A stretch of DNA of 64,000 bases, from contig QPMI01000602.1 of the NCBI GenBank assembly GCA_004431415.1, positions 186,001 to 250,000 on the forward strand, read 5' to 3'. The stretch's first letter is position 1. Each line of letters begins with the position of its first letter. Source of the stretch: Cyanophora paradoxa CCMP329. Its lineage: Eukaryota > Plantae > Glaucophyta. The translations under genes were made by a program, and so were the position numbers. Below are positions 40,949 through 58,656 of the stretch, piece by piece. The notes beneath the pieces are model-generated. The model had not been told where the DNA came from and did not search any database. It was given only the letters and a program-made list of their open reading frames with translations.

Positions 40949-41200
40949 TTGGTCTAAAAGTTAATTGATTTAATCGATATTATATTCATGTACTTTCTCG
41001 ATTAAATTTAATTAAATTTAATTCATTTAATCGGAAATATATCGCTAAACTCGATTAAGATCCATAAAAGATTCATTTGTTTAATAAAACAAATCGATCT
41101 CTTATTGAATTCAATCGTAATTATACATGAAACTTATATGATTTGATCATTGTTTTATTGAGTCTAAGGGGGGACCCTTAGGAATTTAATGAATAATTGG

Positions 41201-41290
41201 GTGTCACAGGTGTCACAGGTCCATCCATCGAAAGGGAAAATCACTCTTTATAGGGCTTGAGCTGGGATAAACCTGTGACACCTGTGACAC
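41201..41290. repeat. Inverted iteron cassette, copy 1
   Basis: GTGTCACAGGTGTCACAGGT, 50-bp spacer, ACCTGTGACACCTGTGACAC: a perfect 20-bp inverted repeat built from tandem 9-mers. Confidence 0.85.
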
Positions 41291-42329
41291 ATACCATATT
41301 CAGTAAGGACCTCATATATTGTTAAAATCTCAGTGTTAGTTGGTGTAGTTGATTCAAAAAATGCATTTATACTCTGATTCATTGTTATTTCCTGTGAAAT
41401 TTGAGTCAACTCAACCCACTTAGTCAACCCTTGCATTGAATTCGTAACAAAATCCATATACTATTACTACTTTTACGATTAATATGAGTCAACCTTGAGT
41501 CCACTTAAATATAAATATAATATAATAGGGGGAATGAAGGGGATATGCTACTAAATGCAGTGCTAGATTGATGGGATCATATATGTAATTACGTTTATCA
41601 AAGCAATATAATATAGGTGATTATTCGATATCATAAGTTGATCGAAACGATAAGTATATGGTTATAAATCGCGATTTTTGAGTTATAATCGAATTTAATC
41701 GATTTAATTTTGAATTTCAAAACTCGCTTTAATCGTAATAACGATCTATACACATTGAGATTCGTATATGTGATTGCAAGTTATTGTTATGTAGGATATA
41801 TGTGATTATATTCGACCGTCAGTGCATCGATTTGATAACTTCCTAGTGATCTATATTAAAAACTCACGTTTAATGGATTTTAATCGAATTTAAAATCAAA
41901 ATTCAACATCGGTTTCATTGCGATTTGGAGTCACAGGTATCGAAAATCCTCAATGTGATAGTAGCGCTGTGACCGCCTTAAAATGCTCGATTTTATGACG
42001 TTTGCAGCGCATCGATTTGAGCATGTGGTGTTGAGCTATCGTAGCAAACGTGAATATTGAGTTTCTAGACGGGTACAGCATTAATCTAGAAAAAAACGCG
42101 TTTTTTTTTTACTTTTCAAGTTTCACGGCGAACGAAGTAAAGGTTCCCGGTCGGATTGAACCTCAGCATCTTCAAACGGTTATATCTCATCACCAGATCA
42201 TCAAAACGCAACGTTCTGCATATCGCTGTGAAGCGCTTGATAAGAGCTACAAGACTATGTGTATATCATATGCATATATGTATATCAGTCATACATATAT
42301 TTGGAAAAAACGAGTTTTTGCCTAGCAAA

Positions 42330-43715
42330 CTAGCTAGTTTTGGTCCTTTCTCTTAGTGTTCTTTGAGGTTTAGGGGCTGTATATGACTCCTTAGTAGTCT
42401 GAAAGTCATTATACCATCTCTGGCTATTCACTTCTGAAAGTTTCTGTGTCCCTGCTATAGTGAGCTTTTTGAGTTCCCTATTAACTTTGCCAGCCTTCTC
42501 CTTTCTAGCCTCTATCAAAGGCTTATCTGGGACTTCATTAGCAGCTTCTATGCCTTCTCTCCTTATAGCAGCATCAACCCTGGCTTCCTCCTTGGCTTGC
42601 TCTAAGGCATCCACTGTAGGGGTTTCTAGATATTCAACTGCATTCACAGGCAACAGCTCATGGAAAGCAAACCTGTTTTCTATGATCTCACCAGTGGGAC
42701 TCCTTAGCTTAAACTTAAAGCCTTCCCTACTATCAACAGTGTAAACCATCCTAGACCAATTGTTACCCTGTTTAGCAAAGGGATTTTTCTCAACTTTCAC
42801 TCTAACAAACATGCCAGGCTGCATGGTATCAAGGTAAGCTATTGATTTCTTGAATCTTTCATCTTCTAATCCCACTATATACCTATAATGCTCCTCTGTA
42901 GTTTCGCCTGGCTTCATCTTAGTAGCTGAGTGAACTGTATTATTGTAATTATACTCAATATCACCTAACACATCAAAGAATCTAGCTGTGTTATTAGCTA
43001 TGCAGTAGTTTGTGATCAGTCTCTTAATCTGCTTGTTAAAGGCTTCAATTCGACCTTGGCTTCTATGGTCAGCAGTTCCACTCACTTGGTGTTCTATGAA
43101 TTTACTAGATAAATACTCCTGGAATATTCGATTTTGGAATTCACTCCCAGCATCTGATTGAACTTTTACTATGGGTCTTGCCACTCTCATTTCAAGCTGC
43201 TTAAATGCAGCTAATGTAGTGAGAGCTGATTTATCTCTTATAGGTATGATATACCCAGTTCTCAGTGTTGATTCCATAGCAGTCATAAATGTATCATAGC
43301 CATTGTTTTGTTTCTTATAAGCTGGGAAAAAGAGCAAATCAATCACATAGGTATCAAGGGGTTGCCTTATTGGAACCATGGGATCTCTCTTCCTAGATAT
43401 AGCAGGTGCATTGATCTGAACTACCTCTTGTTTTTTATAGAACTCTTGCAATTGCTTATAGGATTCATCAGGTAACTCAGCCCTCATGGCTTGAAGCCCT
43501 TTATAACCAGTTCTCACATCATAGAATCTCTTGGCAATCTTGCTGGTTTCTTTCACTGCAATTGCAACTGGAATCTCTACTGGGACAAGCTCTTTCATCT
43601 CTGACTTTTTAACAATTCGAGATTCTCCCTTTTCCTCCTTGGGAACTGTGATGGGCAGTAGGTTACCTTGTAGTTGCTCAGTGGTTCTCCTAACTATTCT
43701 TCCAGTTGCTGGCAT
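42330..43715 (-). CDS. Retroviral-type (rve) DDE integrase
   Basis: YVIDLLF (D), VQSDAGSEF (D), QGRIEAFNKQIK (E), YNNTVHSATKMKP; Polinton/mavirus-type. Confidence 0.93.
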   Translation of the reverse strand: MPATGRIVRRTTEQLQGNLLPITVPKEEKGESRIVKKSEMKELVPVEIPVAIAVKETSKIAKRFYDVRTGYKGLQAMRAELPDESYKQLQEFYKKQEVVQINAPAISRKRDPMVPIRQPLDTYVIDLLFFPAYKKQNNGYDTFMTAMESTLRTGYIIPIRDKSALTTLAAFKQLEMRVARPIVKVQSDAGSEFQNRIFQEYLSSKFIEHQVSGTADHRSQGRIEAFNKQIKRLITNYCIANNTARFFDVLGDIEYNYNNTVHSATKMKPGETTEEHYRYIVGLEDERFKKSIAYLDTMQPGMFVRVKVEKNPFAKQGNNWSRMVYTVDSREGFKFKLRSPTGEIIENRFAFHELLPVNAVEYLETPTVDALEQAKEEARVDAAIRREGIEAANEVPDKPLIEARKEKAGKVNRELKKLTIAGTQKLSEVNSQRWYNDFQTTKESYTAPKPQRTLRERTKTS

Positions 43716-43718
43716 CTC

Positions 43719-46700
43719 TTAATTAAAAGGAACAGAATTAATACCATCTGGTAAGATGTATCTCTTTGCATCAAAGCAGTTTAGGGCAACCCTTCTACTT
43801 ACAGTATCTATTATTGTGTGATCTGCCCTTCTCTTCTGCTTTGCAGTCACAGTCTTGCTGATACCTGCAAATAAACACTGCTTAAAATCATTAAATTGGA
43901 GTTCCTCAGTGGAAGTCCCAGAGAGCTTACTTCTCTCAATCTCAGCAGTTCTGAAACTGTAAACTTTTGCTCTCAGACCTACATACTCCAGTATTGCAGA
44001 GCCAGGCATTTCATTTTTGTATTTACCTGGGGTCATTCTGTTAGATCGCCCTAGGTCCAAGGCATAAGATATATTCTCTATATCTTTTTGTAAGGTCTTA
44101 GATTCAATATATAGACAGAAGGAGTCAGTATCATGGAATAGTAACTTTGCTTTTGTCCATTGGGACCTTACAGTATCATAGAAGAACTGGTAATTATGCA
44201 GTTTGGCTGCATCCAAAACATAAGCCCCAATTGCAACAGGCTTATCTGGTTTCACATGCTTTGTGTAAAACTCAAAGGCAACTGCTTTTTCGTTTATGGG
44301 GCTTGTTGATTTCACCAATGGGGAAGCTGCATATTTCATAAATAGTTTCTCACTGTTTGCAATCTTAACCACAGATCTACCTCTACATGATTCAATGCAT
44401 TTCCCATAGATTGAATTATTCATGAGCTTATAGAAATCAGCCTCGAATTTATTCACTGCTTTCCTTCTCATGTCAGTATTCAGCTCAATATAGGGTTTCA
44501 TTACAGGAGCCACAGTAAATGATAGGACCCTGTGAACTTTCTTTAATTTCACCCCTTTGTCCAACAGATATTGCAGAAGAGGCTCAGAAATCACATAGTT
44601 TGCCACAGAACCAAAGGTTGCAGTTAGCTTTGGGGTTTTATCAAGCTCTTCTCCTGAAAGATCTAAAAGGCTCTTTTGATATTGTGATAATTCGGCATAA
44701 TCTATTATTTTCTTGTTAATGATTAGGGGGAAATCACTGTGATCTAGAAACAGCCTAATTGGGTAATCCAGATCAACTTCCAGGAAACTGGATCTGTTAT
44801 CTTGTGGGTTGAATTCGGTCTCCCATCTAAAATCACCAACTGGGATTGGCTGACTCAAACAGTAGCCATACAAGTTGTTAGCATCAAACAGCATAATGTG
44901 GGAGTTTTCACCATCAGCCTCAGCATACCTACAAGGCATTGTTGCAAAGCCACCCCTGATTCCCCTCTCAACAAATTCGTATTGCTCTACATCACTTATA
45001 AGCTCTATTTTTGCCTTGGTGGTCCTTAACATAGAATCCCAAGATAACCCAGGGGCAGATACATAATGAACTGGGTCAAGTCCATATACTGAGTGTGAAA
45101 GCCTTCTAAAAGCCTGGAATTTGTTCATTAACTCATCTACATCAGCAGCCCCAAAGTCCATGAAATTACTTGCATCAATGAACTTGTAAAGACCCCATTG
45201 CAATGAAAGGTATTGATCAAAGTTTTTTGAGAGGATTTCGATTCGTTTTTTATCTCCCAAGCCTGCTATTTTTCTGAAAATGAATGTCCCACAGTCATCC
45301 ATTTGGTCAACAACAACTGCAACTTTGGTTTGCTTTGAGATTCTCCTATGGAGATTGCAGTTTCTGCATGCAGGAGCAATGTAATGACCTGTGTGGTGGT
45401 CATGATCTCTGCATTTAAAGTTTTCCTTGGTGAACCTCTCACTGCAAAGGTAACAGTGTTTGGTAGCTCTGTAAATTGCTTTCTGCTCATCTGTGAGTTC
45501 ATTCATAGGAATATTGGTAAACAGAAAATCGATCAGTTCTCTTGCTTTGGACTCCAAGCATTCAAACAGACCTCCCATTGGATCATGCCCCTCAAATCGA
45601 AAATCTTGAACATCTGCCCCAGTGACTATTCTAATGTTGACTGCTGAGACTTCCCTCTTGGATTTCGATGCATCAATGGGGATGCTTCTATGTGCAATCT
45701 TGCAGTAGACCACAACAGGAAGCCACACAGTTTTCCTGAGGTTTTTCAGTCCAAACTCTATGGTGGTCTCAGGTTTAGGGGTGATTCCCTTTGAGAGTCT
45801 CCAATCAATGCATCTGTTTGAGTCCACATGAGCAGTGAGTTTAGCCTCAGACCTGAATCGAGATAAGCATGTGTCACAGTAGTGTAACTTTTGATCCTTG
45901 GTTTTATCAAGGGCAACTCTTAGAAGTCTTGAGAGTGACATAATAGTAATATAGTGACCATTCCCTTCATCATCATGAATGAGCATGAGATTAATCTTTT
46001 GCTTTCTGCCTGGGTTGCTGGATTGATGCAGTGGATATATAACATCTCCATCCATTCCAAAGATGTTTATGCTAATGCCTGCATTTTGAGCTTCGAATTT
46101 ATCAATGATTTCAGCATCACAAGGAACAGGGAATGGGATATTGTCGAAATTGAGAGCCAAAGGATTGTATGTGGTTGGTGAGTATTTCCATTTGCGATAT
46201 TGTGTAAGCTCACTTCTCTTGTGGGAATTTACATCTTTCCTATGGATCCATGCCAAAATGGCATTTTCAAAGCAAGAATCATCAATATTTCGAATATTCA
46301 CTGTGGCTCTCTTGGCTGCAATTGATTCTGGTGTTTTAACATAGCAACCACCAGTTGGGGCATAACTCATAATAGCTACTCTGAGCATTTCGATTCTCTC
46401 AAGTCGATAGCTATCAACCACATTCATCTGCTCCTGACACATTTGGGCTGCTTTATTCAGCTCAGTTCGAATATTTCTCGATTTAGTTAATACAAAATAA
46501 TCGCTGTAAACGTATTTCGATATCCAAACCTGTGGATTGCTGACTTTAACGAACTTGCAGATAAACGACAAGCGAACTTTGATTGCCCTGAATTGATCCA
46601 GACTATCCCTTAAACGTTTTGGTAGAGAGGTTGCAATTCTATCTAAATATTCAATCACATCTACCACAACTTCCCTTCTGGCTCTGTATGTGAGCCAGCG

Positions 46701-46964
46701 ATATAATTCATTCATGGCTGTGCCATCTTCTGCCTCTGGTTCTATTTGCCTCAGGCGATCGAGTTCATCAAGAGTCTCAACTTTGTCATAGAGGTTATTG
46801 GCTTTTCTGGTTAATTTGGACAAAGTGGGTCTCCCCCTTGAAATAAATCCGATTTCGCGGTCATATTCAGCCTCAGTGATTTCATGGGCTGCATACAGTG
46901 TTCCCAGTAATCCCATGAGTTCCCATTTCTTCTCTCTAATGAGTCTGTTGCTAATTCGGGGCAT
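43719..46964 (-). CDS. Protein-primed family B DNA polymerase (Polinton type)
   Basis: Motifs FDANNLYG, KLMNNSIYGK, HDTDSF, EYVGLRAKVYS; C2H2 finger; endonuclease-VII-like CYLC...RDHDHHTG...CRNCN. Confidence 0.95.
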   Translation of the reverse strand: MPRISNRLIREKKWELMGLLGTLYAAHEITEAEYDREIGFISRGRPTLSKLTRKANNLYDKVETLDELDRLRQIEPEAEDGTAMNELYRWLTYRARREVVVDVIEYLDRIATSLPKRLRDSLDQFRAIKVRLSFICKFVKVSNPQVWISKYVYSDYFVLTKSRNIRTELNKAAQMCQEQMNVVDSYRLERIEMLRVAIMSYAPTGGCYVKTPESIAAKRATVNIRNIDDSCFENAILAWIHRKDVNSHKRSELTQYRKWKYSPTTYNPLALNFDNIPFPVPCDAEIIDKFEAQNAGISINIFGMDGDVIYPLHQSSNPGRKQKINLMLIHDDEGNGHYITIMSLSRLLRVALDKTKDQKLHYCDTCLSRFRSEAKLTAHVDSNRCIDWRLSKGITPKPETTIEFGLKNLRKTVWLPVVVYCKIAHRSIPIDASKSKREVSAVNIRIVTGADVQDFRFEGHDPMGGLFECLESKARELIDFLFTNIPMNELTDEQKAIYRATKHCYLCSERFTKENFKCRDHDHHTGHYIAPACRNCNLHRRISKQTKVAVVVDQMDDCGTFIFRKIAGLGDKKRIEILSKNFDQYLSLQWGLYKFIDASNFMDFGAADVDELMNKFQAFRRLSHSVYGLDPVHYVSAPGLSWDSMLRTTKAKIELISDVEQYEFVERGIRGGFATMPCRYAEADGENSHIMLFDANNLYGYCLSQPIPVGDFRWETEFNPQDNRSSFLEVDLDYPIRLFLDHSDFPLIINKKIIDYAELSQYQKSLLDLSGEELDKTPKLTATFGSVANYVISEPLLQYLLDKGVKLKKVHRVLSFTVAPVMKPYIELNTDMRRKAVNKFEADFYKLMNNSIYGKCIESCRGRSVVKIANSEKLFMKYAASPLVKSTSPINEKAVAFEFYTKHVKPDKPVAIGAYVLDAAKLHNYQFFYDTVRSQWTKAKLLFHDTDSFCLYIESKTLQKDIENISYALDLGRSNRMTPGKYKNEMPGSAILEYVGLRAKVYSFRTAEIERSKLSGTSTEELQFNDFKQCLFAGISKTVTAKQKRRADHTIIDTVSRRVALNCFDAKRYILPDGINSVPFN

Positions 46965-47031
46965 TGTTCCTAACTTGTTCCTAATAAAAGGAGAGGTTTT
47001 AAATGGGGTATTCTGAACACAAAATTTGATG

Positions 47032-47070
47032 AAAACTACTTAAAGAAATATCTTCTATATATATAAAAAG
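47032..47070 (+). promoter_or_regulatory. Conserved viral upstream motif (putative promoter)
   Basis: AAAACTACTTAAAGAAATATCTTCTATATATATAAAA, nearly identical to 48323-48360; shorter variants at ~47870 and ~50890, each upstream of an ATG. Confidence 0.7.
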
Positions 47071-47073
47071 ACA

Positions 47074-47856
47074 ATGGCAGAGAAGAGATCTTATTGCCTG
47101 GAAATATTGAAAGCTGAACTTTTGAGAATATGTGGATCTGATAATTTCAATAATTATGTTGCTCTGGGTAGTAACAGAAAGCTGCTCCCCCTTTGGGCAA
47201 AACTTGCCAAGTATGGATTAAGTGACACAGACCTGCCCCCAGAGTCTAAGAATTGCGCTTGCAATCATTATATTCAAGAGCAGTGCTATATTTTGCATGT
47301 GGATAAAAAGATTGTGGTCATAGTTGGCAACTGCTGCATTAAACGATTTATGCCAAAGGGTGCCAGGGGTCAAGATATATGCGAAAAATGTGGAGATCGG
47401 CATAAAAACCGAAAAGATAATTTCTGCAATAAGTGCAGGATTATCAGAAAGCAAGAGGAAGAAGAAAGACAAAAGCAGCTTGAAATAGAGAAAAGAGAGA
47501 CAAGGCAGAGAGAATATGAAGAAGAAAGGGCAAGAAAGAAACATGCAGTGAACCTTTTCCTGATTTGGTGCAACCAGTTTATACCAAAAATGGATAATCT
47601 TCGCAGAGATGATATAGAGAGGTTCAGAGAGGGCAGATCTGCATTGATTGAAATGTATGCAGAACTCAGTACTACAAATACATTGGTTGCTGGGTTTCAG
47701 GTGCCATATCTTAAAAAGGATATTGCAAAAGGACTAGATTGCAGATGGAATAAGGACAAGAAAACATGGGAGACCTTGGAAATCGAACCATTTGTAGCAT
47801 TGCTAGGTAAGCATTTCAAACTTATGTATATTGAGCGATTTGGACAAAGAGGTTAG
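47074..47856 (+). CDS. Viral Cys-rich protein with C-terminal DUF5710-like motif
   Basis: CACNHYIQEQCYI...VGNCC, CEKC...CNKC, a charged coiled coil, then VPYLKKDIAKGLDCRWNKDKKTW. Confidence 0.75.
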   Translation: MAEKRSYCLEILKAELLRICGSDNFNNYVALGSNRKLLPLWAKLAKYGLSDTDLPPESKNCACNHYIQEQCYILHVDKKIVVIVGNCCIKRFMPKGARGQDICEKCGDRHKNRKDNFCNKCRIIRKQEEEERQKQLEIEKRETRQREYEEERARKKHAVNLFLIWCNQFIPKMDNLRRDDIERFREGRSALIEMYAELSTTNTLVAGFQVPYLKKDIAKGLDCRWNKDKKTWETLEIEPFVALLGKHFKLMYIERFGQRG

Positions 47857-47912
47857 AGAACAAAAAATGATTTAAAGAATTCTCTATATATATTAAGAGA
47901 GAAAGAGGAAAA

Positions 47913-48167
47913 ATGCCACTCAGTGAAGCGCAGAAGAGAGCTATGAAAAGATATCAGCAAACTGAAAAAGGTAAGGCTCAAATCAAAAAGTTTAACGAAA
48001 AAATAGCCACACAGCTTAGAGATCTATATAACACTGATGACACCTATAGAGCCATGAAAATAGCAAGTTCATGTCAGCGAAAGTATGCAGCCAATGCAGT
48101 CTGCTTTGTCAAGTATTTGTATGATGTCCCTTACTCAAATCGAGGGAGAAAATCGAAACATGTCTAA
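47913..48167 (+). CDS. Small basic viral protein
   Basis: MPLSEAQKRAMKRYQQTEKGK; preceded by the TTAAAG motif. Confidence 0.65.
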   Translation: MPLSEAQKRAMKRYQQTEKGKAQIKKFNEKIATQLRDLYNTDDTYRAMKIASSCQRKYAANAVCFVKYLYDVPYSNRGRKSKHV

Positions 48168-48322
48168 ATTATTTTTCCCAGCATATTACTAGGCTGGGAT
48201 ATGCTGTTTATTCGCTGAAATACTACTTTATCGTTTTTGTATCTGAACCACTCGATATATGATGTGGATAAATTTCGTAGGGATACTTTCTCGATTTCCA
48301 ACAAAAAATGATTGGGGGACCC

Positions 48323-48360
48323 AAAACTACTTAAAGAAAAATCTTCTATATATATAAAAG
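48323..48360 (+). promoter_or_regulatory. Second near-identical copy of the viral upstream motif, flanked by an inverted repeat
   Basis: ATTGGGGGACCC - motif - GGGACCCCCAAT, directly upstream of the primase-helicase. Confidence 0.7.
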
Positions 48361-48379
48361 GGACCCCCAATCGCTGAAA

Positions 48380-50706
48380 ATGAACGCCAAACAGACCAAG
48401 TTAATTAAATCGCTCGCTAACTGGCTTCGTTCTGATGAGGAACTGTCCAAAAACATGATTATCCCTGTGAAACCTGACAGCAAAGACCCTGTTTTCAAGC
48501 ATAAGGGAGGTGCTTGGTCCTGGGAAAAGTATGAGGAAGCGCTGGCAACTAATCAGTATGTATCTTGGGGCATTCTGCTCTCAGAAAACATGATGGTTAT
48601 TGACTTTGATGATGAGGAGAACTTCGAGAAATTCCGGGATATGTTTCCTGATGACTTTGATGCCAATCAACCCATGGCAAAAACTAAAAAAGGCTATCAT
48701 GTCTACTTTAAACGACCTGAGGAGTTCAATAAACTCAAAATTACCGATACGGCTCCTGGCTTTAAAGGCTTTGAGAAGGTTGACCTGAAAACAATCACTG
48801 GAACTGGAACTTCTGGATTAATTAATGTTTGTCCCAGTGTCAACAAGACCTGGGTAATTGCTCCATGGGATGATACCTGTGATTTCAATGAGCCTACTGA
48901 TGAGTTTAAAAAGTGGATTGCAGAGAACTATATCTATAAGAGTGAGTATACTGCTAGTGCTAGCTCAAATGATGAACTGGAAAAGAGTATTCTTAAAGAG
49001 CTGGTGGATATGGGCTTTATGCATCCCAATATAATCTCTAAAACTGAACTGGGCTTTAACTTTGATGCTGCCAATAAGGGACTCAATTGCCCATGCTGCA
49101 ATGGGTCACATGAATCGAATAACTGGTATGTTATGAAAGCCAAAGGGGAAGATAAAAAGTATATTGTGTCCAGCTACAGTGGCAATTGCAAAAAACGATT
49201 TATCTTCATTGGAATGCAATCTGATATCTTCAATCTCATTGATAAATCCGCTGGCTCTGGAGGCGCTCATTATGATGTCAGTCTTGTGTGCAAAGAGGTC
49301 CTACAACACACTTGGAGATACTCCAAAAAGTCATGGTTCAAACTCAATACTGATACTGGGATTTGGGAGCATGATGACACAAACCAAAAGATTTACCTAG
49401 ATATTAGTTGCCTTGTTGTCCCTCAATACCTTGGCAGGGCTGTGCATTATAGCCAAAGAGCTTTGAAGGATGAAGAGAATAGAACAGCTTTCGAAGAGAA
49501 ATCGAAAACATTAATTTCTATTGCCAAAAATCTTAAACAATCAGGATATCGCAAATCCCTTCTGACTGATCTGCTCCCTCTGCTGAATGATGATGAGTTC
49601 TATGAAAAGATTGATACAGTTCCATATGTAATTGGATTCGATAATGGTGTATTTGATCTGACAACTATGACTTTCAGAAAGGGTAAACTGGAAGATATGG
49701 TGAGCAAGAGTGTGGGTTATGATTTTACTGAGAATGTAGACCCCAAGAAAGTGGAGCATCTCAATCAGATTTATAGAGAGATTGTAGATGATCCAGCAGA
49801 GCGAAACTATCTTCTGGCATCTATTGCAATTGCTTTGAGTGGATCAACAAAATCACAGAAGTTCTATATGTGGACTGGTGCTGGTGCTAATGGTAAATCA
49901 CTTGTTCAGGAATACTGCAAACAGATATCTGGGGCTTATTACAGCCCTCTCGAAATATCCTATTGGACCAAACCTAAGAAGAACTCATCAGATGCTACCC
50001 CTGAACTTGCCAAACTCCTGGGAAAGCGACTTGTATTCAGTAATGAGGCTGAAGATGGTGATAAACTGCAAATTTCCAAAATTAAGGAGGTCACAGGTGG
50101 AAATGAAATGACTGTGAGAGCCTTGTTCAAAGACCCAGTAATCCTCACTCCAATGTTCCAGGTTTACATTACAACTAATGACAATTTGACTATAAATAAA
50201 CCAGACTTTGCAATTCAAAGAAGGCTTTCATACCAGAGATTCAATAATATATTCAGAGAGAAGCCTGAAGCTGGTCAAAAGAAAGCTGACCCAACTCTGT
50301 TCACACTTCTTCACAATGATGATGAGTATAAGATGGCTCACATGAAGATATTACTGGATATGTGGAAGAACAAAGAAGTTGAAGAGATCTTAAGAAATCC
50401 CCTCAATCGATTATTGAGCAGGGAATAAACTTTATAGCTGAAAATGACAAGATTGGTGAATGGCTTAGGGATAATTTCGAAGTTACCCATAATGCAAACG
50501 ACTTTGTTTCGAGTGATACCATTTACAAATCATACAGAAGTGTCGATGATAAAGTTGAATGTGTTTCTGTGATGAAGAGAGTAAGGGAAATCTTCAATGT
50601 GAAATCAGAGGTTAAACGAATTCAGGGAACCAGAGCAAGGGGCTACATTGGACTTCGAAAGATAACAAGGGTTCAAGAAGACAATGGAGAGGATGTTGAA
50701 TATTAA
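48380..50706 (+). CDS. Prim-Pol primase fused to D5-like SF3 helicase; frameshift at ~50400
   Basis: Prim-Pol motifs VIDFD and KTKKGYHVYF; CPCC...H; D5_N IGFDNGVFDL; Walker A GAGANGKS. The C-terminus continues in the -1 frame (PQSIIEQGINFIAENDKIGEWL...RGYIGLR...*) to 50706. Confidence 0.9.
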
Positions 50707-50766
50707 ACAAAACGATTTATGATTGAAATGTATATGTAATTTTTATAGCCTTACTGGAAATGGTGT

Positions 50767-50859
50767 TGTTCACAGGTGTCACAGGTCCATCCCATCTAGG
50801 GGGCTATAAAACGAAAAATGACCAGGGGACGATAAAAACCTGTGAACACCTGTGACACC
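50767..50859. repeat. Inverted iteron cassette, copy 2 (candidate replication origin)
   Basis: TGTTCACAGGTGTCACAGGT, 51-bp spacer, ACCTGTGAACACCTGTGACACC; 60 bp downstream of the helicase stop. Confidence 0.85.
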
Positions 50860-50926
50860 TATCGAAAAAGACCAAAATTTGACAAGAATACTTAAAGCTT
50901 ACTTGATTGTGTATAGTGAAGACAAA

Positions 50927-51148
50927 ATGGCAAAGACTCTTGATGAGATGACCATGACTGAGTTAGATAAATGCATAAAGCATGGAGATATAGGGGCATA
51001 TATCGAAATGTCACAGAGATTGATAGGTTACAATATGTATGCAGCTAAACCAAAGAGAAATAGATCAGTAAACATTCACATTACTGTTTCAGTATCTGAG
51101 AATGTAAACAAAAAACTACAAAAGCAAATTTACAAAGCTTATCTGTGA
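50927..51148 (+). CDS. Small hypothetical viral protein
   Basis: ATG (MAKTLDEM) lies 35 nt after TTAAAG; the track's GTG start falls inside the iteron. Confidence 0.5.
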   Translation: MAKTLDEMTMTELDKCIKHGDIGAYIEMSQRLIGYNMYAAKPKRNRSVNIHITVSVSENVNKKLQKQIYKAYL

Positions 51149-51241
51149 CTTGCAATTGATTGCAAGTATAAAGCCAATTCCTTTGTATATATTTTTATAG
51201 CTGCCTCAGTGGCATACTGAGACCGCTTTTTCTCGATTATC

Positions 51242-51487
51242 TTATAGACCTGGGGGTCCATTGCTACTATCAGTAGGCAAATAATATTTAATCGGTCTCC
51301 CTCTGGGTCTCTGCTCCTCTTTTTGGGCTTTTCTGCGATAATAGGATGCCAGGGCTTGCTGCTTTTTATACTCTCTATATGCTGGGTCCTCTCTATATCG
51401 TTTCTGCATTGCTAGTATGTGTCTGATAGAACCCTCAGTAACAGGTTCATCACTGGTAAACTCGATTAAACTAATAGTGTCCTCCAT
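51242..51487 (-). CDS. Small basic viral protein
   Basis: RYREDPAYREYKKQQALASYYRRK...RPRGRP (AT-hook-like); overlaps its neighbour. Confidence 0.6.
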   Translation of the reverse strand: MEDTISLIEFTSDEPVTEGSIRHILAMQKRYREDPAYREYKKQQALASYYRRKAQKEEQRPRGRPIKYYLPTDSSNGPPGL

Positions 51488-51743
51488 TTATATTCCCAGA
51501 GAAAACGTTTTCTGCTGGCAGAGAACTTCTCCTTGGATACTCCTGTTGCTCATATGTATACTCTGTGGGGTCTGCTGGCATTGACTCCACTGAAGCTGTT
51601 GACCTCCTTCTTTCTCTTGCCTCAGATACATTATCCTCAGTATCTGACATCTCAAACTCTATTGTTGTGTCACAGCATCCACTGTGGCAATTGCTTACCA
51701 CATGCAGACTGAGCATCTCAATAAACTTTCGTATTATATCCAT
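51471..51743 (-). CDS. Small hypothetical viral protein
   Basis: ATG-started ORF packed in the minus-strand gene run; contains SNCHSGCC. Confidence 0.55.
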   Translation of the reverse strand: MDIIRKFIEMLSLHVVSNCHSGCCDTTIEFEMSDTEDNVSEARERRRSTASVESMPADPTEYTYEQQEYPRRSSLPAENVFSGNINGGHY

Positions 51744-51765
51744 GTCTCTAATAAAACAGAGAAAA

Positions 51766-52500
51766 TTAAAGCCAAACTCGTCTTTTATATACTGTGGGAG
51801 CTACTCCCTTTTCTACTTCAGCTTTAGTGGCACCAGGTTCAATGGTTCCCTTTTGGGTCTTTGTTTTCATTTCATCTACTGCTTGCTCATCGATTTGGGT
51901 CTCTTTCTTAGCAATAAACTGTTTATCTGGGACACCAGTAATGCCCATTTTATAAACTTCCTTTCGAAGCATCTCCTTTAGCTTAGCCCTCTCTTTCTTC
52001 TCAGTAACATACTGCTCCAAGGCACTGGATTTGGCTTCCAAGTCTTTGAGTTTAGCAGTCATCTCATCCCATTGAGCTTTGGGAATTCGATGAATATTTT
52101 GAGTGGGAGCAGTCTTATATGTGACTTCACCAGCCATAGACTGAATTACCTTGTCTGATTCCTTACTAAGACCTTCACCTTTGCGAGCCAGTGAAAGATC
52201 TTGCAAGCCTAGACCTTTATCATCAGCAGCACCAATAATTCGCCTGGCACCCTCAGCAACAGCTTTCATTTTTGAGGCTTCTGGTGAGATGTTGAGTTGG
52301 TCACTGGTTGAAGCCTGTGGGGCTTTGTCATCGACTGATTCCTCATAGGCAGCATTAAGAGGGTCTTCTTCTTGTTGTGAGGGCTTCACCTCATTCATAC
52401 CATTGAACTTCAGTGGTTCAGTGTTAATGGATCCATTGTTTCCACCACCTGAATAGCCAACAGCCCCAGCTGGGATCCCTATTTTTCGTTTGGGAGGCAT
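51766..52500 (-). CDS. Hypothetical viral protein with coiled coil (possible core/structural protein)
   Basis: 244-aa ORF starting MPPKRK, next to the packaging ATPase. Confidence 0.7.
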   Translation of the reverse strand: MPPKRKIGIPAGAVGYSGGGNNGSINTEPLKFNGMNEVKPSQQEEDPLNAAYEESVDDKAPQASTSDQLNISPEASKMKAVAEGARRIIGAADDKGLGLQDLSLARKGEGLSKESDKVIQSMAGEVTYKTAPTQNIHRIPKAQWDEMTAKLKDLEAKSSALEQYVTEKKERAKLKEMLRKEVYKMGITGVPDKQFIAKKETQIDEQAVDEMKTKTQKGTIEPGATKAEVEKGVAPTVYKRRVWL

Positions 52501-52528
52501 TGTATCTTTATTAGAATGAGAGATAATT

Positions 52529-53311
52529 TTATAAACCGCGTTTATATCTCATCAATTTATTGCTATGGATTTGGCTTTTCACTTCTTTAGGGGCTTCCTC
52601 TTTCTCTGGTGGTTTCAGTTCATCTTCTTTCTTTTTTGGCTTTCTGTGGAAGCGAGGAAATGGGAAATCTTTCACAAGCTCAGCTTTATCTACATAGTAT
52701 TTAACTGAGTAGTTTGCAGAGGACCAAATAATATACTGATAGGAGTGAACATACTCTTCAAACATCTTGTAAAAATCCTCTTTATTTCGCATTATATTGT
52801 ATTCTTCCTCTATGGCTTCCAGTTCTTTGCGATTTGCAGCACTTAAAAACATAGCATAGTCCGAATTAACTCGAATTGTTGAAGAAACCTTACGCAGTTT
52901 CTGAGTTATGCAAAAAATGCTTATTTGGGAATGGCGCCCACGCGAATACAGAGATCCTATTATTTTATCCCTGGTCAAATCGACTATTTCATTATCGATT
53001 AAATCATCTAAAACCACACATAACTGATTAACAGGTTCTCCCTTTTCTATTTTCTCTTGCCTCTCATCTAGCAATTTAGCAATGTAAGGGGCATCCCATT
53101 TTCCCAGTTGCAGTGTTGCCACTTTATCCCAGAAATGATTGAAGCTGGTTCCACTCACAACTAATACAACATCAATCTTTTTGGCATCATGCAGTTGCTT
53201 CAACCAATACTTTACAGCTTCTGATTTACCAGTGGCAGACTTGCCAATTGCTAATACACGAAATGGTGGTTCTATCATTTCACCAGCCACAAATTCATCC
53301 AAATCATTCAT
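52529..53311 (-). CDS. A32/FtsK-like genome packaging ATPase
   Basis: Walker A GKSATGKS, Walker B LCVVLDD, RGRHSQISIFCITQ, IRVNSDY. Confidence 0.93.
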   Translation of the reverse strand: MNDLDEFVAGEMIEPPFRVLAIGKSATGKSEAVKYWLKQLHDAKKIDVVLVVSGTSFNHFWDKVATLQLGKWDAPYIAKLLDERQEKIEKGEPVNQLCVVLDDLIDNEIVDLTRDKIIGSLYSRGRHSQISIFCITQKLRKVSSTIRVNSDYAMFLSAANRKELEAIEEEYNIMRNKEDFYKMFEEYVHSYQYIIWSSANYSVKYYVDKAELVKDFPFPRFHRKPKKKEDELKPPEKEEAPKEVKSQIHSNKLMRYKRGL

Positions 53312-53376
53312 TGTTGTATATCTTTCTAAATAAATACAGATAAAAATAATGCAGAGAGACTGAATATCGTAACAAT

Positions 53377-54747
53377 CTATAAATTAATTCTTCGGAGACC
53401 ATCCTTGTCCAAAATTATATAGCTATGCATGAGAGCGCGAACATTGACATCGATTACCTTATCTGAAGGCATGTAGAGGGTGAGGAAGGAAGAAGAGGAA
53501 TTTGTTAAATCGACATAACCAGACTGGGCAATATTTCGAATTGCCTTCTCTCCATCAATGCAGAAACTTAAACCTGAAAGGACATAGCGATCAGCAACCT
53601 TATCCATGTTAGAGCATTTGAAGGCATCAGCAATTAGCTCAGCACCTTTGAGTAGGGAAATTGGCTCAGTGGCATAAAGTCGCTGTCCATTAATTTCAAC
53701 AGTGAAAGTAATATCTTTGGAGTTGGCATAGGTCTTAAGAACACTGTGGGAGCCAGTGGATTTATCAACAGTTGCATTATCACGAACTGAAACAAGCAGA
53801 GCATAAACAAGACCTGAGATTTGAGAGAGGTTAATTCGATTGGGTTGGGCATTGCCCTTGGCAGGGAAAGCACTAGCATCTACAAATCCAATATCAAGGG
53901 AGGGAATAGCCATGCCAGTAGTCTTTACTTTTTCAATTACAGTAGCGAAAAGCTCATCAGAAACATTAATAGCATGCATGTAAAGGCGAGGAGAAGTAAT
54001 AGAAATGACAGGGGTTGTTGCACCAAGAGTAAAGTCTGTGATGTTTTGACCAACATTTGCCAGAACAGTTTCAGCAGGGGCAGTTCCAAGACCATCATCT
54101 TTTGAATAATCTACATCAGCTGCTGCAACAGTAAGACCACGACCACCATAGGAAGTTTCAACATAACCCTTTCCAGCATCCTTAAACCAAACAGTAACAA
54201 CCATTTCACCAGATAAAGCACCAAGGGGAAGGTAGTGATTTAGCCAAGGCACAGGGATTTCAACAAAGAATGAGCCACCAAGGCGGTTGGTTCCATGAGC
54301 AGGGATGCCATGAACCATGCCCATTGATTGCTTCTTTTTAGCTAGTTGATCCTCCGAATAATAGACCAGGGGGAAATGAGCAAGGAAATCAGAGGGAATG
54401 TGGTAGGTGTAAGATCCATAGGTAATTTCGAGTCGCTGAACTAAAGCACCAACTGGGCGAGTGTATCCATTGCGAACTAGGTCAGTATCACCAGCAAATG
54501 TGATGGCTGGAAGGTCGAAAGCAAGTTCGAGTTTTCCACAGAAATTGTAGCGAGGTAGCTTGAAGGAAATGCGATTTCCAACATTATTCTCAAAAGTATT
54601 GCTGGGATTCACAACAACTAGAACTGGCTTAGACTTGGATTCGAGACCAAGCATTAGGGAGTTATCCAGGAAAAAGGCTTTCGCCTCCTCTGGGGTTGTT
54701 AGGGCTTCTTTCAGCGAAAGTCTTTGAAGAGTGGAAGTGATATCCAT
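53377..54747 (-). CDS. Major capsid protein, probable double jelly-roll
   Basis: ~456-aa beta-rich ORF between the ATPase and minor capsid genes; GNRISFKLPR...LELAFDLP...LVQRLEITYG and ITFTVEINGQ resemble DJR strands. Likely start MDITST. Confidence 0.8.
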   Translation of the reverse strand: MDITSTLQRLSLKEALTTPEEAKAFFLDNSLMLGLESKSKPVLVVVNPSNTFENNVGNRISFKLPRYNFCGKLELAFDLPAITFAGDTDLVRNGYTRPVGALVQRLEITYGSYTYHIPSDFLAHFPLVYYSEDQLAKKKQSMGMVHGIPAHGTNRLGGSFFVEIPVPWLNHYLPLGALSGEMVVTVWFKDAGKGYVETSYGGRGLTVAAADVDYSKDDGLGTAPAETVLANVGQNITDFTLGATTPVISITSPRLYMHAINVSDELFATVIEKVKTTGMAIPSLDIGFVDASAFPAKGNAQPNRINLSQISGLVYALLVSVRDNATVDKSTGSHSVLKTYANSKDITFTVEINGQRLYATEPISLLKGAELIADAFKCSNMDKVADRYVLSGLSFCIDGEKAIRNIAQSGYVDLTNSSSSFLTLYMPSDKVIDVNVRALMHSYIILDKDGLRRINL

Positions 54748-54800
54748 TATATTCTCTTTTATTATACTGCAACATAAAAAATCTACCAATGATCCTTAAT

Positions 54801-55832
54801 TTATGCGAAGCTTGTAATAACTGGATAGGAAGGGTGAAGCTGCGACATTCTCATCTTAAAGTATTCATAAACTGGGTCTCCTGCTGGCTCATCACCATAG
54901 CGAATTTCAAAGGTCAGATGAACAGGTTGACCCTCAAAATCAATTGGTTCATTTACAGCATTAACAATATCAACCGAGAAAGTGGATAATCCAACCTTCT
55001 TATTATAATATTTGTAAAGTGGGTGAGCTTCTGTTGAATTGTAAACAACATGCTCACCATAGTCTTTATCAGGGACCACTATTTTGTGAAAGTAACCAGT
55101 CAGAAGACCATCCCCACATTGAACCAGATCACCCAGCTCCTTTACTCTCACAAACAAAACACTGTCCCTGGTCTTCTCAGGCTCAAAAGAAGATATAATG
55201 CCATTCACTCGACCATCAGTAAAGATTCCATCAGTGAGAGCATCATAAACTTGGGATTTGATTGGGGAATTCCCATATCTTCCAGGATCAAGACCAAGCA
55301 GTCTAGCTGAACTCAATAGCTTTTGGATTGTTTGTTGGCTTGGGTTTACAGCAAGTGAGAAAGCCAGGTAAAAAGGCACTGCCGACTGGAATATAATTCG
55401 TTTCAGTGACTCATCCCATTTGCAGCGAATGGATGGTTGGGGAGTTCTGCCAATGAATTTTGAGTTGATTACATTCACCAGCTGTTGGTGGCTTTGGATG
55501 GGGGTCTCGCGATTTACCATGAATTGTTTCCATTGTTCAAAATCAGCAGCTGGGCGAGTTGTTGGAATTCCTGAGCTTCCAGCTCCTGGAGTTTGTTCAG
55601 AATAATAAATACTAAATGTGTTATCAACTGTTACATCTCCTGCTTTGGTTTCACCACTCACCATAGGGATGCTGTTATAAAATTCGGCTGAGACCAGTCT
55701 CACAGCCCTCACATTCTCATAAGTACTGGGGAGTCTAGCCACAAAGCTTGAAGTGGGACCATCACCAGAGATTGTATTAAATGAGCTAACCTCGATGTAA
55801 TCCACAGGCATTCTTCTTTTATCTATATTCAT
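54801..55832 (-). CDS. Minor capsid (penton-like single jelly-roll) protein 1
   Basis: SFVARLPSTYENVRAVRLVSAEFYNS ... LFVRVKEL ... LSTFSVDIVNAVNEPIDFEGQPVHLTFEI. Confidence 0.8.
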   Translation of the reverse strand: MNIDKRRMPVDYIEVSSFNTISGDGPTSSFVARLPSTYENVRAVRLVSAEFYNSIPMVSGETKAGDVTVDNTFSIYYSEQTPGAGSSGIPTTRPAADFEQWKQFMVNRETPIQSHQQLVNVINSKFIGRTPQPSIRCKWDESLKRIIFQSAVPFYLAFSLAVNPSQQTIQKLLSSARLLGLDPGRYGNSPIKSQVYDALTDGIFTDGRVNGIISSFEPEKTRDSVLFVRVKELGDLVQCGDGLLTGYFHKIVVPDKDYGEHVVYNSTEAHPLYKYYNKKVGLSTFSVDIVNAVNEPIDFEGQPVHLTFEIRYGDEPAGDPVYEYFKMRMSQLHPSYPVITSFA

Positions 55833-55840
55833 ATATTAAA

Positions 55841-56773
55841 ATGAACCGGCTCGTTAATATTGATAGCAGGGATAGAAGCCAAGGACAAAATGAAAACTCT
55901 TACAGGGTCACCCTCACAACTCCAGTAGAGAGACCAAGGGAATGCAGGGTTCTATATGCAGAGATTCCAAACAGCATCTATAACAGTGTTGGAACTGATC
56001 ATCTAACAGTTCAGTTTAATTACCAAGATGGTTCATATAACCAAGTGATCACACAACAAGTGTATCCCCTTCCCAGTGGCTACATCAATCAGGGTCATTT
56101 TGGGGTAACACACCCTTATAATTACGGGCTGAACTATTCAAGCTTCCAAACAATTGCAGGCAAAACAGTAGCTTTTGAGTTCAAGATATTCTATAACCCA
56201 ACTACCTATAAAGTGGAGTTTTACAGTAACCATGAGTTTCGTTTTATTGCAAGCAACCAGAGAATAGGGAAGCTTTTGGGTGTAAGCTCTACTGAATATA
56301 CCAATGGGTATTATAGCACTCCTCCTGTTGGTGGATCTCCCTATCGACCTGAGAACCTTTTAAAGTATGATGGCAAACCTATTACACCTGATCACCCAGC
56401 ATGGGGAATCACCTTCTCAGGACCCAGACTCTCCTCTAAGCCCTTGCAATATTATTTTGACAGCAGGAAGATGTCTGATATGAATGCTGAGCAGTATCTG
56501 TACATGCATATTAAAGAGCTGTCCCCCTTTGCCAGCAGACACAATATAATTCCAAAATCGCAACCACAAAACCAGGGAGCTATCCTTAGATTGCAATTGA
56601 GTAAGGATATAGGGGGCTATGTTTACCATAGTGGTGAGCATGCAGAATTTATTCAAATCAATGACAGAAACCTGGTGATAAGGGAACTCACAGTTGAGTT
56701 TAAAGATTACTTTGGTGAACTGATTGATATGAATGGAATCGATAATTCGTTTCAGTTGGAGTTTATCGAATAA
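55841..56773 (+). CDS. Minor capsid (penton-like single jelly-roll) protein 2
   Basis: VNIDSRDR ... AEIPNSIYN ... YLYMHIKEL ... LTVEFKDYFGELIDMNGIDNSFQLEF. Confidence 0.85.
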   Translation: MNRLVNIDSRDRSQGQNENSYRVTLTTPVERPRECRVLYAEIPNSIYNSVGTDHLTVQFNYQDGSYNQVITQQVYPLPSGYINQGHFGVTHPYNYGLNYSSFQTIAGKTVAFEFKIFYNPTTYKVEFYSNHEFRFIASNQRIGKLLGVSSTEYTNGYYSTPPVGGSPYRPENLLKYDGKPITPDHPAWGITFSGPRLSSKPLQYYFDSRKMSDMNAEQYLYMHIKELSPFASRHNIIPKSQPQNQGAILRLQLSKDIGGYVYHSGEHAEFIQINDRNLVIRELTVEFKDYFGELIDMNGIDNSFQLEFIE

Positions 56774-58097
56774 AGGCACCTGTAAAGTCCACTCTCATTG
56801 TGGGAGCATTCACATACACAAGGGGATAAATGCGAATATATTTAATTCTGAGAGAAAAACCTATGTAAAAAGCATCCTTGATGCTGAGAGGGAATCCACT
56901 CAATAAAGCCACATCACCTGAGTTGTGAGCATTGTTAATGTTCTCACAGACATACATTTTGTTTTGCCCATCTGATCGAATAAAAGACCAGTTGATCCCA
57001 TCAGTGGATGTTGCCACATTGAAAGTCTTAATAAAAGCATTGGTGTCACCTGAGCCATAGGCAATCACAGAGGAGAGTTCAAAAGTGTATGGGAAAGCAA
57101 CTTGAAGGTATTCAGTGGGGGTTTCCCATATCTGCTCAGGAGCATAGGCTCCAGCTTCCCAGCCAAATGCTGAAGGTCTAGCCATGAAAGGCTCTTTACC
57201 AGTCACAGAGGATGAGGCAGTGAAGGCATCATCTGCAAGCTGATACCAATTAGCATCCAAAGGTGGTGATGTAGTGAGAGTGGATGAGATGTAAGCCTTT
57301 GTAGGGTTCTTTAATTCATAGTTTGCTACTAGAATGCTGCAAAGCTTATTAATCATATCATTGTTTGCTGCTATGTATGTTTCTGTGAAAGAAAGCATAT
57401 CTGGGATTTTAGAAGTGTCATCCAGGGAGCTTACTATGTGATTCGGAAGAGGGACTGATAGCCTATAGTATCTCCCATAATCCTGATCATAGTTGTAGGG
57501 TAACAACTCCTCCATTTTATCAAGGGCAGAAAGCTCACTTGCAGCCATGAGCATGTTAATCAATGGGCTTCCATCTGTTGAGGCAATCCATGAGAGAATG
57601 CCCCAGCTGTTCACAGTCTCATAAGCATAACCCACATAGTCAGACTCTAAATGTGGGTCCACCTCTCCACAAGAGATGCTTATTACTATAATATCATCAT
57701 CATCACTGTAAATCTTCTTTGCATGGCTGTAACCACACACACTGGGATTATTGTTTCCCGAAATGGCACCATCAATGAGACAGACATATACTCCCCGATT
57801 GAAATCAACAATGCTTACAGGAGAGAAATATGTAGGAGCAGCAGAAGTAGCCCTAGCAGCAATCTTACAAGGCATAAAGTTGTAATTGTTATCATTTGTG
57901 ATAAATATTGGTTTCATATTCTGAGTATCAAAGGATGTAATCACAATGTCCTTTAGGGAATCTTGTATTAGTGATTCACCAGTAACTGAATTGATTGCAG
58001 TCTCCAAGGGTCCCACATCATACTTTGTATTAAAAAGGGCATTTTCGATTATATTTCGAGGATTTGCGAAAATCAAGGGCAGTTGAGTTAGGTAAAT
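56763..58097 (-). pseudogene. Patatin-like phospholipase fused to F5/8 type C (discoidin) domain; 5' part displaced by the insertion
   Basis: ATSAAPTYF and IDGA patatin motifs; discoidin EYLQV...STDGINW...YIRIYP...MRVDF. No ATG, DGGG or GxSxG motif before the sequence turns GC-rich. Confidence 0.85.
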
Positions 58098-58656
58098 TGT
58101 TGCCGATAGGGTTTCCTAGCCGTTAGTGCTTCGTTTGCACTTCGTTCGCAGTAGTACCGTGACTTGACCCGCGGCTTCTCGCGATTTCCTGAGTCACTGT
58201 ACCCCTGTACGAAGATGCGACCCTAGCTACTTTTTCTGACTCTAGCTTGATACTTTCCGGTAGCCGTGTCCTAGGGTACACAGTAGTCTGTGATTAGCAG
58301 CTTTCTCTTGCAACGTGACAGCCTGCTCGCCTGCTGCTGGTACGCTACGGGAAGGTTGCTAAGGTCTACTGGGACGTATAAAACCTCCTAAAACATCCTC
58401 GCCGGGACCAGCGCACGCCAGCTGACGGACTTGCTGCGCACGTCCGTTGGCCGCGAGCGTGAACCCGCTGGACTACGAGGAGGCGAACGCTTGACGCTTT
58501 CGGAGAGCACCGCTACTGGCGGACGCACTCCGCTGACCCGCCTCGCCGCCGACGCTTCCCTTCTCGAAGCTTCGGACGCGCCTCCGCCGCTCACTCGCGC
58601 AGTTGGGGAGCAGCCCGCCGTACCGCGGCATCGGCTAGCTCCCTGGCTCATCGTTC

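Follow-up and report, generated by a model that had tools for sequence, protein, structure and literature searches.

Origins of replication that lie beside primase-helicase genes are an already known kind, comprising P4-type iteron origins and pRN1-type origins. In SaPI/PICI elements, which are integrated and helper-dependent, the rep gene encodes a primase/helicase-type initiator, and the origin, in which iterons border an AT-rich stretch, directly follows its 3' end. In the annotated record of P4, crr is located 46 nt after the alpha gene and ori 4.7 kb away; in each 120-bp repeat of crr, type-1 units occur twice with a 9-bp period and precede inverted units. For pRN1, the accessible part of the source describes an origin of ~100 nt (stem 21 nt, loop 58 nt) that lies 54 bp downstream of the rep gene, which encodes a PrimPol-SF3-winged-helix protein, and mentions similar stem-loops after phage replication genes, for example that of BIP-1 (PMC4234260). 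With regard to polinton-like viruses, inverted repeats beside the primase-helicase have been hypothesised to serve both as origin and for integration (PMC11296320, as far as its accessible part goes). In the literature searched, no experimentally defined replication origin of a polinton-like virus or virophage was found, the terminal-repeat hypothesis in the accessible part of PMC11296320 being the only proposal.

Two cassettes were characterised in the window (the whole 64-kb stretch of DNA that was analysed). Judged from their sequence and from the genes beside which they recur, they are probably iteron-type origins or loading sites of the element's own primase-helicase, similar to crr/ori of P4 and to the origin of pRN1. 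New in this case are the polinton-like-virus setting and the finding that one precise cassette is common to helicase genes of Bacteria, Archaea and phages.

The cassettes and the element that carries them

Cassette A (41201-41290, unstranded) contains two TGTCACAGG units, a spacer of 52 nt and two CCTGTGACA units; its arms are TGTCACAGGTGTCACAGG (41202-41219) and CCTGTGACACCTGTGACA (41272-41289). Cassette B (50767-50859, unstranded) contains the units TGTTCACAGG and TGTCACAGG, a spacer of 53 nt and the inverted units CCTGTGAACA and CCTGTGACA; its arms are TGTTCACAGGTGTCACAGG (50767-50785) and CCTGTGAACACCTGTGACA (50839-50857). Both follow one layout, in which two 9-bp units TGTCACAGG face two inverted units at a 9-bp period (2+2). 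The two cassettes of ~90 bp with this arrangement had been reported in a preliminary description and were seen again at the same positions, the spacers being slightly longer than the 50-51 bp given there. Inverted-repeat analysis returned arms of 26 nt with 92% complementarity for cassette A. In cassette B a 1-nt insertion is present in two of the four units, at non-mirror positions. The motifs TCCATCC (3' of the left arm) and GATAAA (5' of the right arm) are common to A and B and the spacer interiors are different, which bears out the earlier remark that arms and adjacent CCATCC/GATAAA are conserved around a divergent interior. On the side of each cassette that points toward the 9.5-kb interval, a flank of ~19 nt is conserved as well: the flank of A (41290-41308, unstranded) is an inverted copy of the flank of B (50749-50767, unstranded), and the whole inverted match between A and B amounts to 62 nt at 77%.

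The exact 9-mer occurs six times in the 64-kb window, each time within cassette A or B. For GGTGTNACA, five matches were obtained in the window, all of them in the cassettes, at an expected number of 0.82; at least five matches were reached in none of 100 shuffles. A chance origin of the units was ruled out by the confinement of the 9-mer to the cassettes together with this shuffle test. The third copy envisaged in the preliminary description was not detected by the unit search within the 64-kb window, and the right end of this element copy is missing. The spacers in the window have a GC content of 42-43%, above the island mean of 39%, and AT-rich DNA (27-33% GC) is located just outside the cassette arms and not in the spacers. 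No obvious unwinding element is recognisable in the window spacers, unlike those of the marine relatives described below, which are AT-rich (14-24% GC).

Both cassettes are contained in a low-GC island (40662-58097, unstranded; 17.4 kb, 39% GC) in surroundings of 60-79% GC. The following genes were assigned in it: an rve integrase (42330-43715, minus strand; Pfam rve with E 2.6e-4, below the cut-off of that family, and a PHROG transposase with 7e-11), a protein-primed family-B polymerase (43719-46964, minus strand; DNA_pol_B_2, 1e-13), two small plus-strand genes between the polymerase and the primase-helicase, and a packaging ATPase of the Pox_A32 type (52529-53311, minus strand; Pox_A32, 4e-10). 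The interval from A to B is made up of the integrase, polymerase and helicase block. A patatin-like lipase is also encoded. Two further proteins were assessed with a language model, and the results serve as leads only: a 470-aa protein with look-alikes among NCLDV-type capsid proteins (0.97) and a 343-aa protein with likeness to viral proteins of unknown function (0.98). A search for a close relative of the capsid-like protein in viral contigs gave none. Its gene set suggests that the island is a polinton-like virus in integrated form, or an endogenous virophage-like element, and the GC-rich DNA around it is probably eukaryotic. A eukaryotic host is suggested by public runs of one organism in which the element is present and whose contigs amount to 69-124 million letters, and by the high-copy family described below. 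The preliminary description had spoken of an origin in the style of a satellite phage; the gene set is not that of a phage satellite.

Contigs of the single-copy flank stop at 40690-40691, and other copies of the element run beyond 58097; this copy therefore spans ~40662-58097 and is truncated at its right end. A long inverted repeat joining the two ends of the island was not found in a test that is weakened by the right truncation. Cassette A is located ~540 nt from the left edge of the island, in agreement with the earlier placement of one copy as subterminal, and ~1 kb past the 3' end of the integrase gene. Cassette B is located 60 nt 3' of the stop codon (50704-50706) of the C-terminal frame of the helicase.

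The primase-helicase and the described systems

The primase-helicase ORF (48380-50428, plus strand) was assigned with Pfam and PHROGs and carries Prim-Pol, D5_N and DUF5906/SF3 helicase domains. In this copy the uninterrupted ORF stops at 50428 owing to a 1-nt frameshift at a C run near 50398, and the C-terminal frame (50383-50706, plus strand; 107 aa plus stop) with a predicted winged-helix DNA-binding domain is separated from it. The distance of 60 bp between primase-helicase and cassette in the preliminary description thus holds for the frame 50383-50706 and fails for the uninterrupted ORF with its stop at 50428. In most other copies an extra C is present after 50398 (all of the depth in the sequencing runs X2, X3 and X5, and 2,774 of 3,668 in X1). 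With this extra C both frames would be joined into a predicted protein of 775 aa, the coding sequence of which would end 60 nt upstream of cassette B.

The 107-aa piece was modelled with AlphaFold2 from an alignment of 18 helicase C-termini (pLDDT 82.7), and the elements of the model follow in the order helix-helix-strand-strand-helix-helix-strand-strand-strand. A Foldseek search with the model returned RFX DNA-binding domains at the top (E 8e-5 and 1.4e-4) and then other winged-helix regulators. With a second structural aligner, Z scores of 10.1-10.3 were obtained for RFX, of 7.1 for the C-terminus of the ASFV PrimPol-helicase and of 6.4 for the P4 origin-binding domain 1ka8 (rmsd 2.5 over 72 residues), the values of 7.1 and 6.4 lying in a range where many winged helices tie. 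From these fold searches and a confident model the 107-aa domain is assigned as a winged helix, and it occupies the place of the origin-binding domain in proteins of this family. Searches by sequence gave nothing below E 0.08 in Pfam and nothing significant in the PDB (RFX1 with E 1.2 when a profile was used). The piece could be aligned collinearly with the C-termini of the cassette-associated helicases described below, with which it has the wing motif R-x-R-G-Y-x-G-L-R in common, and one of these helicases gave matches to Pox_D5 and RFX_DNA_binding. The helicase core of the window is only 25-29% identical to those of the cassette-associated helicases. No close relatives of the helicase were found in viral contigs or in metagenome contigs, and the best protein homologues are at most 32% identical.

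The likeness to P4 extends over several features. In both cases the initiator is one polypeptide with a primase, an SF3 helicase and a C-terminal winged helix, the last being predicted in the window and frameshifted away in this copy. Short units at a 9-bp period, direct and inverted, are present in P4 crr and in both cassettes of the window. One site lies just after the initiator gene (60 nt for B, 46 nt for crr) and a second site lies at a distance (9.5 kb for A, 4.7 kb for ori). The P4 unit TGTTCACA is identical to the first 8 bases of the variant unit of cassette B, and the helicase cores of the window protein and of P4 alpha are 26% identical (E 3e-10). The two systems differ in the type of primase (PrimPol in the window, Toprim in P4), in the length of the unit (9 bases versus 8 bases) and in the composition of the sites, which is one 2+2 cassette per site in the window, whereas P4 has two 120-bp repeats in crr and six units with type-2 repeats in ori. 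Further differences are that the window element looks like a polinton-like virus in probably eukaryotic DNA, equipped with a protein-primed polymerase, and that the C-terminal domains are without detectable sequence similarity (BLASTP to P4 alpha).

Compared with SaPI/PICI elements, the common features are the location of the site 3' of a primase/helicase-type initiator gene and the integrated state of the element; the spacer in the window is not AT-rich, and the initiator family and the unit sequence differ. The geometry of the pRN1 origin, as given in the accessible part of its description, is nearly the same as in the window, where arms of 18-26 nt are separated by 38-53 nt and the cassette lies 60 nt downstream of the gene. 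According to the same part of the source, the pRN1-type stem-loop is kept in structure and not in sequence and has no iterons, (PMC4234260), whereas the arms in the window consist of repeated units of recurrent sequence. The hypothesis in PMC11296320, as far as it could be consulted, concerns the same class of viruses and likewise has a primase-helicase act on neighbouring inverted repeats. It refers to terminal inverted repeats and tyrosine recombinases, whereas in the window the cassettes are short, one internal and one subterminal, and match those of prokaryotic elements in sequence, and the element encodes an rve integrase together with a protein-primed polymerase. The tandem unit sequence was found in no paper of the literature searched.

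The cassette beside helicase genes elsewhere

Viral contigs were searched with the 17-mer of one arm, which gave 44 loci. At 15 of these, units were present on both strands and were located in short non-coding stretches. A helicase ORF was found at most 223 nt away at 11 of the 15, its 3' end pointing toward the cassette in ten cases and its 5' end in one; the helicase ORFs were identified by BLASTP to Pfam-verified VapE/DUF5906/D5_N primase-helicases. By Pfam, the genes adjacent to viral cassettes are VapE-like/DUF5906 with PrimPol, Toprim or DUF6371, or Prim-Pol/D5_N/DUF5906. The other 29 loci carry units on one strand, nearly all of them inside long ORFs as repeats of the Gly-Val-Thr type, and were used as control set; a weak helicase match, 624 nt off, was obtained at one of them (Fisher p = 1.9e-6 versus the two-strand loci). 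In a complete phage record of 80 kb the cassette occurs exactly twice, at a distance of 36 kb, and one copy adjoins the helicase gene. A 23-mer including TCCATCC had no match in the viral contigs. When the central base was left free, the pattern was matched at only two viral loci, of which one was already known and the other had no helicase within 3.5 kb.

Metagenomes were searched with a two-arm pattern, which yielded 52 loci (~1 expected by a rough estimate). At 21 loci the 3' end of a helicase gene is located at most 72 nt from the outermost unit, with the stop codon typically ~10 nt from the cassette; at four loci the 5' end of a helicase gene is found at 22 nt, and at one locus the units are inside an ORF. 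The remaining 26 loci are without an adjacent helicase: eight lie within 120 nt of a contig end, three are chance matches in coding sequence, three represent the second cassette of one phage family, and ~10 are solo cassettes located beside a 190-aa ORF or ordinary bacterial or host genes. The 190-aa ORF beside solo marine cassettes was considered as a helicase fragment and is not one. The adjacent helicases in the metagenomes are mostly proteins of 700-800 aa with the Prim-Pol/PriCT/D5_N/DUF5906 organisation, which is the architecture found in the window. On the far side of these cassettes ordinary bacterial genes are encoded (transporters, dehydrogenases etc.), and one locus (L089) reads AlpA, helicase, cassette, host genes. 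With a helicase on one side and ordinary host genes on the other, the metagenome cassette marks the end of an integrated island.

Eight loci were retrieved from prokaryotic contigs (one genome per species), five of which have a helicase or a fragment thereof within 131 nt. In SAR116/Puniceispirillum, in an alphaproteobacterial MAG and in a Bryobacterales MAG ~10 nt separate the end of the helicase from the cassette; at another SAR116 locus there is only a helicase fragment, at a distance of 131 nt, and in the haloarchaeon Natronobiforma a DUF5906 fragment is located 83 nt upstream. The other loci are a second SAR116 contig without a helicase, a solo cassette in a Halobacteriales MAG and one chance match in coding sequence. 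Twin sites are not general, two genome loci of 20 kb having one cassette only.

In total, 40 cassette-adjacent helicase ORFs were clustered at 40% identity, giving 14 clusters, one of which is a fragment (~13 lineages). The helicase genes usually have the 3' end toward the cassette. Among the 55 loci with two recognised arms, the spacer is 49-51 nt in 42 (35-65 nt being permitted), compared with 52 and 53 nt in the window. Since the unit sequence was required in all collection searches, these numbers describe where the sequence occurs and its association with helicase genes, not its conservation, and many of the marine loci are close relatives of one another.

The related-element search considered in the preliminary description thus placed the cassette beside primase-SF3-helicase genes of phages, bacteria and archaea. 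As regards absence from relatives, which had been named there as a counter-argument, the cassette is present beside ~13 helicase lineages and absent beside all of the best 79 of 587 helicase relatives in the viral collection (mostly contigs of giant-virus type with D5 helicases, 26-33% identity). For these best 79 of 587, the best inverted repeat within 400 nt downstream had a median arm of 11 nt, which is equal to the upstream value, and arms of at least 16 nt were found in two of 75. Because the cassette was found near none of these best 79 of 587, it is no general feature of the D5 helicases of eukaryotic viruses, and the nearest cassette-bearing counterparts of the window are prokaryotic.

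The cassettes could also be transcription 3'-end or terminator hairpins, or operators for the winged helix of the helicase, with no role in the start of replication. The transcripts of giant viruses end at hairpins, the cassettes are often located between convergent genes, and the single strand of cassette A folds far better than its shuffles (-26.5 kcal/mol, z -7.5). Cassette B, the arms of which pair poorly, reached -18.4 kcal/mol and z -2.9, and cassette A is not at the end of a gene. No fixed sequence is required of a terminator, whereas the helicases of ~13 lineages are accompanied by one and the same 9-mer; intrinsic terminators do not resemble a stem of ~18 nt that encloses a loop of ~51 nt and lacks a T run, and in cassettes of the L028 type the cassette is located upstream of the helicase gene. 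In P4, moreover, the terminator is annotated as a feature of its own, located between alpha and crr. Such a terminator or operator function is considered unlikely. The pairing of the arms was also evaluated on its own. The arms of cassette B and of the viral locus L007 are incompletely complementary, the three left units of L007 differing from the three right units at the central base. This mismatch and the non-mirror insertions in B suggest that the arms need not pair and appear to fit protein sites better than a hairpin; a hairpin-only reading was judged less likely.

The occurrence of one cassette beside related helicase genes of bacteria, archaea and phages argues for helicase-binding replication-start sites, and the site type given earlier, an iteron site of the adjacent primase-helicase in the style of P4 or SaPI, gains support from the ~13 helicase lineages and from the crr/ori layout of P4. 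In the mechanism proposed, the P4-alpha/D5-type primase-helicase would bind the cassettes via its predicted C-terminal winged helix, load and start replication. Helicase protomers would recognise the units and form a head-to-head assembly on both arms; the DNA would be opened either in the spacer of 52-53 nt or in the AT-rich DNA outside the arms, and primers would then be laid by the N-terminal PrimPol domain. The pair would work as in P4, with B in the role of crr and A as a distant second cis site near the left end. Since the element appears to be an integrated polinton-like virus, an internal, helicase-driven origin beside a protein-primed polymerase is proposed. Further points against an origin come from the element itself. 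Protein-primed polymerases are usually thought to start at genome ends, and with such a polymerase encoded in the element an internal origin is not obviously required. In addition, the helicase of this copy is frameshifted away from its predicted DNA-binding domain.

A wider reading, which is put forward tentatively and is rather doubtful, is that primase-helicase and GGTGTNACA cassette together may form a self-contained, portable replicon that has been exchanged between islands of bacteria, phages, elements of haloarchaea and a polinton-like virus of a eukaryote. Its DNA address (9-bp unit, 2+2, spacer of ~50 nt) would have been retained, and the proteins would have diverged to 25-29% identity; in the present case the replicon would be one of several interchangeable replication modules in a high-copy virus family. 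If this is true, a protein-primed virus would gain a second, internal start of replication. One origin-like cassette accompanies helicases of the P4-alpha/D5 type across Bacteria, Archaea, phages and a eukaryote-resident virus, which bears on the exchange of replication modules between prokaryotic and eukaryotic mobilomes. With two precise sites of 90 bp and a domain of 107 aa named, the origin question is directly testable. Islands of this kind, such as those of SAR116 bacteria, could also be located by means of the cassette, which provides a simple DNA marker.

Copies of the element within the organism

In four public runs of the same organism, copies of the element are represented by thousands of short contigs with 80-100% likeness. 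The summed depth is 2,000-40,000 for the element versus 37-1,500 for the flanks, which places the element in a family of high copy number. As copy numbers cannot be read from summed contig depth, the contrast within one short stretch was used for the cassette: in run X1 (resolution 13 nt), the arms of cassette A have a summed depth of ~5,000-20,000 and the spacer interior one of ~1,100-1,500, which indicates that many copies share the arms and few share this spacer.

A quite improbable explanation is that the cassettes are recombination or end sequences, namely remnants of terminal inverted repeats, integrase substrates bounding a swappable replication module of 9.6 kb, or sites at which the module is inverted. 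The cassette starts with TG and ends with CA, like the ends used by retroviral-type integrases, and A and B with their 19-nt flanks are mutually inverted around the integrase-polymerase-helicase block. The summed depth of the helicase block (47.3-51.2 kb) is 3-5 times lower than that of its neighbours; the right step is near B, but the left step is near 46-47 kb and not at A. Among the joints listed, no strand-changing, inversion or excision joints were located at the cassettes, and target-site duplications were found neither around cassette A or B nor around the A-to-B block. The cassette is also present in bacterial islands and phages, and the integrase type of the window is absent among the ORFs scanned near cassettes. 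The hypothesis that ties the inverted repeats of polinton-like viruses to integration and to origin function (PMC11296320, accessible part) may be counted in favour of a role in recombination, which is in any case compatible with an origin and does not exclude it.

It is very improbable that the cassettes are small, selfish, MITE-like palindromic insertions that landed twice in the element. Their size of ~90 bp, the terminal inverted arms and the solo copies that some marine contigs and one haloarchaeal MAG carry between ordinary genes would suit such insertions, but no copy is present in the host part of the window (46 kb), the absence of target-site duplications noted above applies here as well, and the position relative to helicase genes is strongly non-random. 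In the four runs, the cassette does not exceed its flanks in depth, and only 0-1% of the contigs continue into unlike sequence. The scatter through host DNA for which the preliminary description had allowed was accordingly not encountered, the cassette being confined to the element in the window.

Variants of the arms were recorded at loose contig ends. The left arm is found there as TGTGACAGG (GGGTGTGACAGGTGTG...), and the mirror variant of the right arm, CCTGTCACA (CCTGTCACACCTGTCACAC...), is found on short contigs separate from those of the left-arm variant and may or may not belong to one cassette with it. In one variant copy from the runs, ..AAACCATATT is retained after the right arm, which supports the conserved flank next to cassette A.

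Replication module and helicase reading frame

Variation among copies of the integrated polinton-like element (the island) was followed in four public sequencing runs of one organism, the contigs of which were compared with the window and their depths summed. The summed contig depth of the helicase block (47312-51217) was three to five times lower than that of its neighbours, taken as an integrase-polymerase block (42104-46009) and a capsid block (51218-58378), a difference that points to replication modules varying between members of the family. The primase-helicase ORF (48380-50428, plus strand) is broken in the window copy at a run of C (50395-50402) that is one C short; the extra C is present in most other copies in the four runs and would yield a helicase protein of 775 aa. 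The missing C could be a genuine mutation of the window copy or an assembly error.

Cassettes in other genomes

Exactly two cassettes, the paired inverted repeats of 9-bp units proposed as replication-start sites, were found 36 kb apart in a complete phage record (G001, loci L028 and L002; 80,684 bases, 66% GC). They lie in direct orientation with spacers 90% alike, and one is located 84 nt upstream of the phage's Prim-Pol/D5_N/DUF5906 gene. Solo cassettes, with no helicase nearby, were found in marine bacterial contigs and a Halobacteriales MAG (L056, L065, L066, L067, and L102), where the neighbouring genes on either side are ordinary ones; one arm is shortened in L056 and L065. These solo cassettes may be leftovers of decayed islands.

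Left edge and short repeats of the island

A 287-bp foldback (40662-40948; 49-nt arms, 82% complementary) coincides exactly with the left edge of the island and may be the terminal structure of the element. The 7-mer TAATCGA occurs 19 times in the window versus 5.5 expected, and eight of these copies fall within 1.4 kb (40540-41890) on both sides of cassette A (41201-41290); it forms a second short-repeat class flanking this candidate site.

An AT-rich 37-nt repeat containing ACTTAAAG and TCTATATATATA is present in two copies (47032-47068 and 48323-48359; 97% identical). It looks like a promoter, judged by its position, as the ATGs of two plus-strand genes start 5 and 20 nt past the ends of the copies. 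The second copy lies between the two arms of an inverted repeat, GATTGGGGGACCC/GGGACCCCCAATC (48310-48322 and 48360-48372), that is perfect over 13 nt; a similar palindrome, GGGGGGACCC, is located 25 nt to the left of cassette A.

Other genes of the island and host DNA

The window's first 14 kb, at about 50% GC, contain no ORF of at least 200 aa. Two tRNA-Thr(CGT) genes (25368-25439 and 29138-29209) lie 3.8 kb apart in GC-rich host DNA. Within the island, the polymerase ORF (43719-46964) carries a weak endonuclease VII-like stretch (residues 492-538; Pfam E 2.5e-4, which misses the Pfam cut-off; PHROG 1.1e-5) that precedes the polymerase domain. The product of the island's last gene (56763-58076) is a patatin-like lipase that has an F5/8 type C domain, and the start of this gene falls at the truncation point of the window copy.
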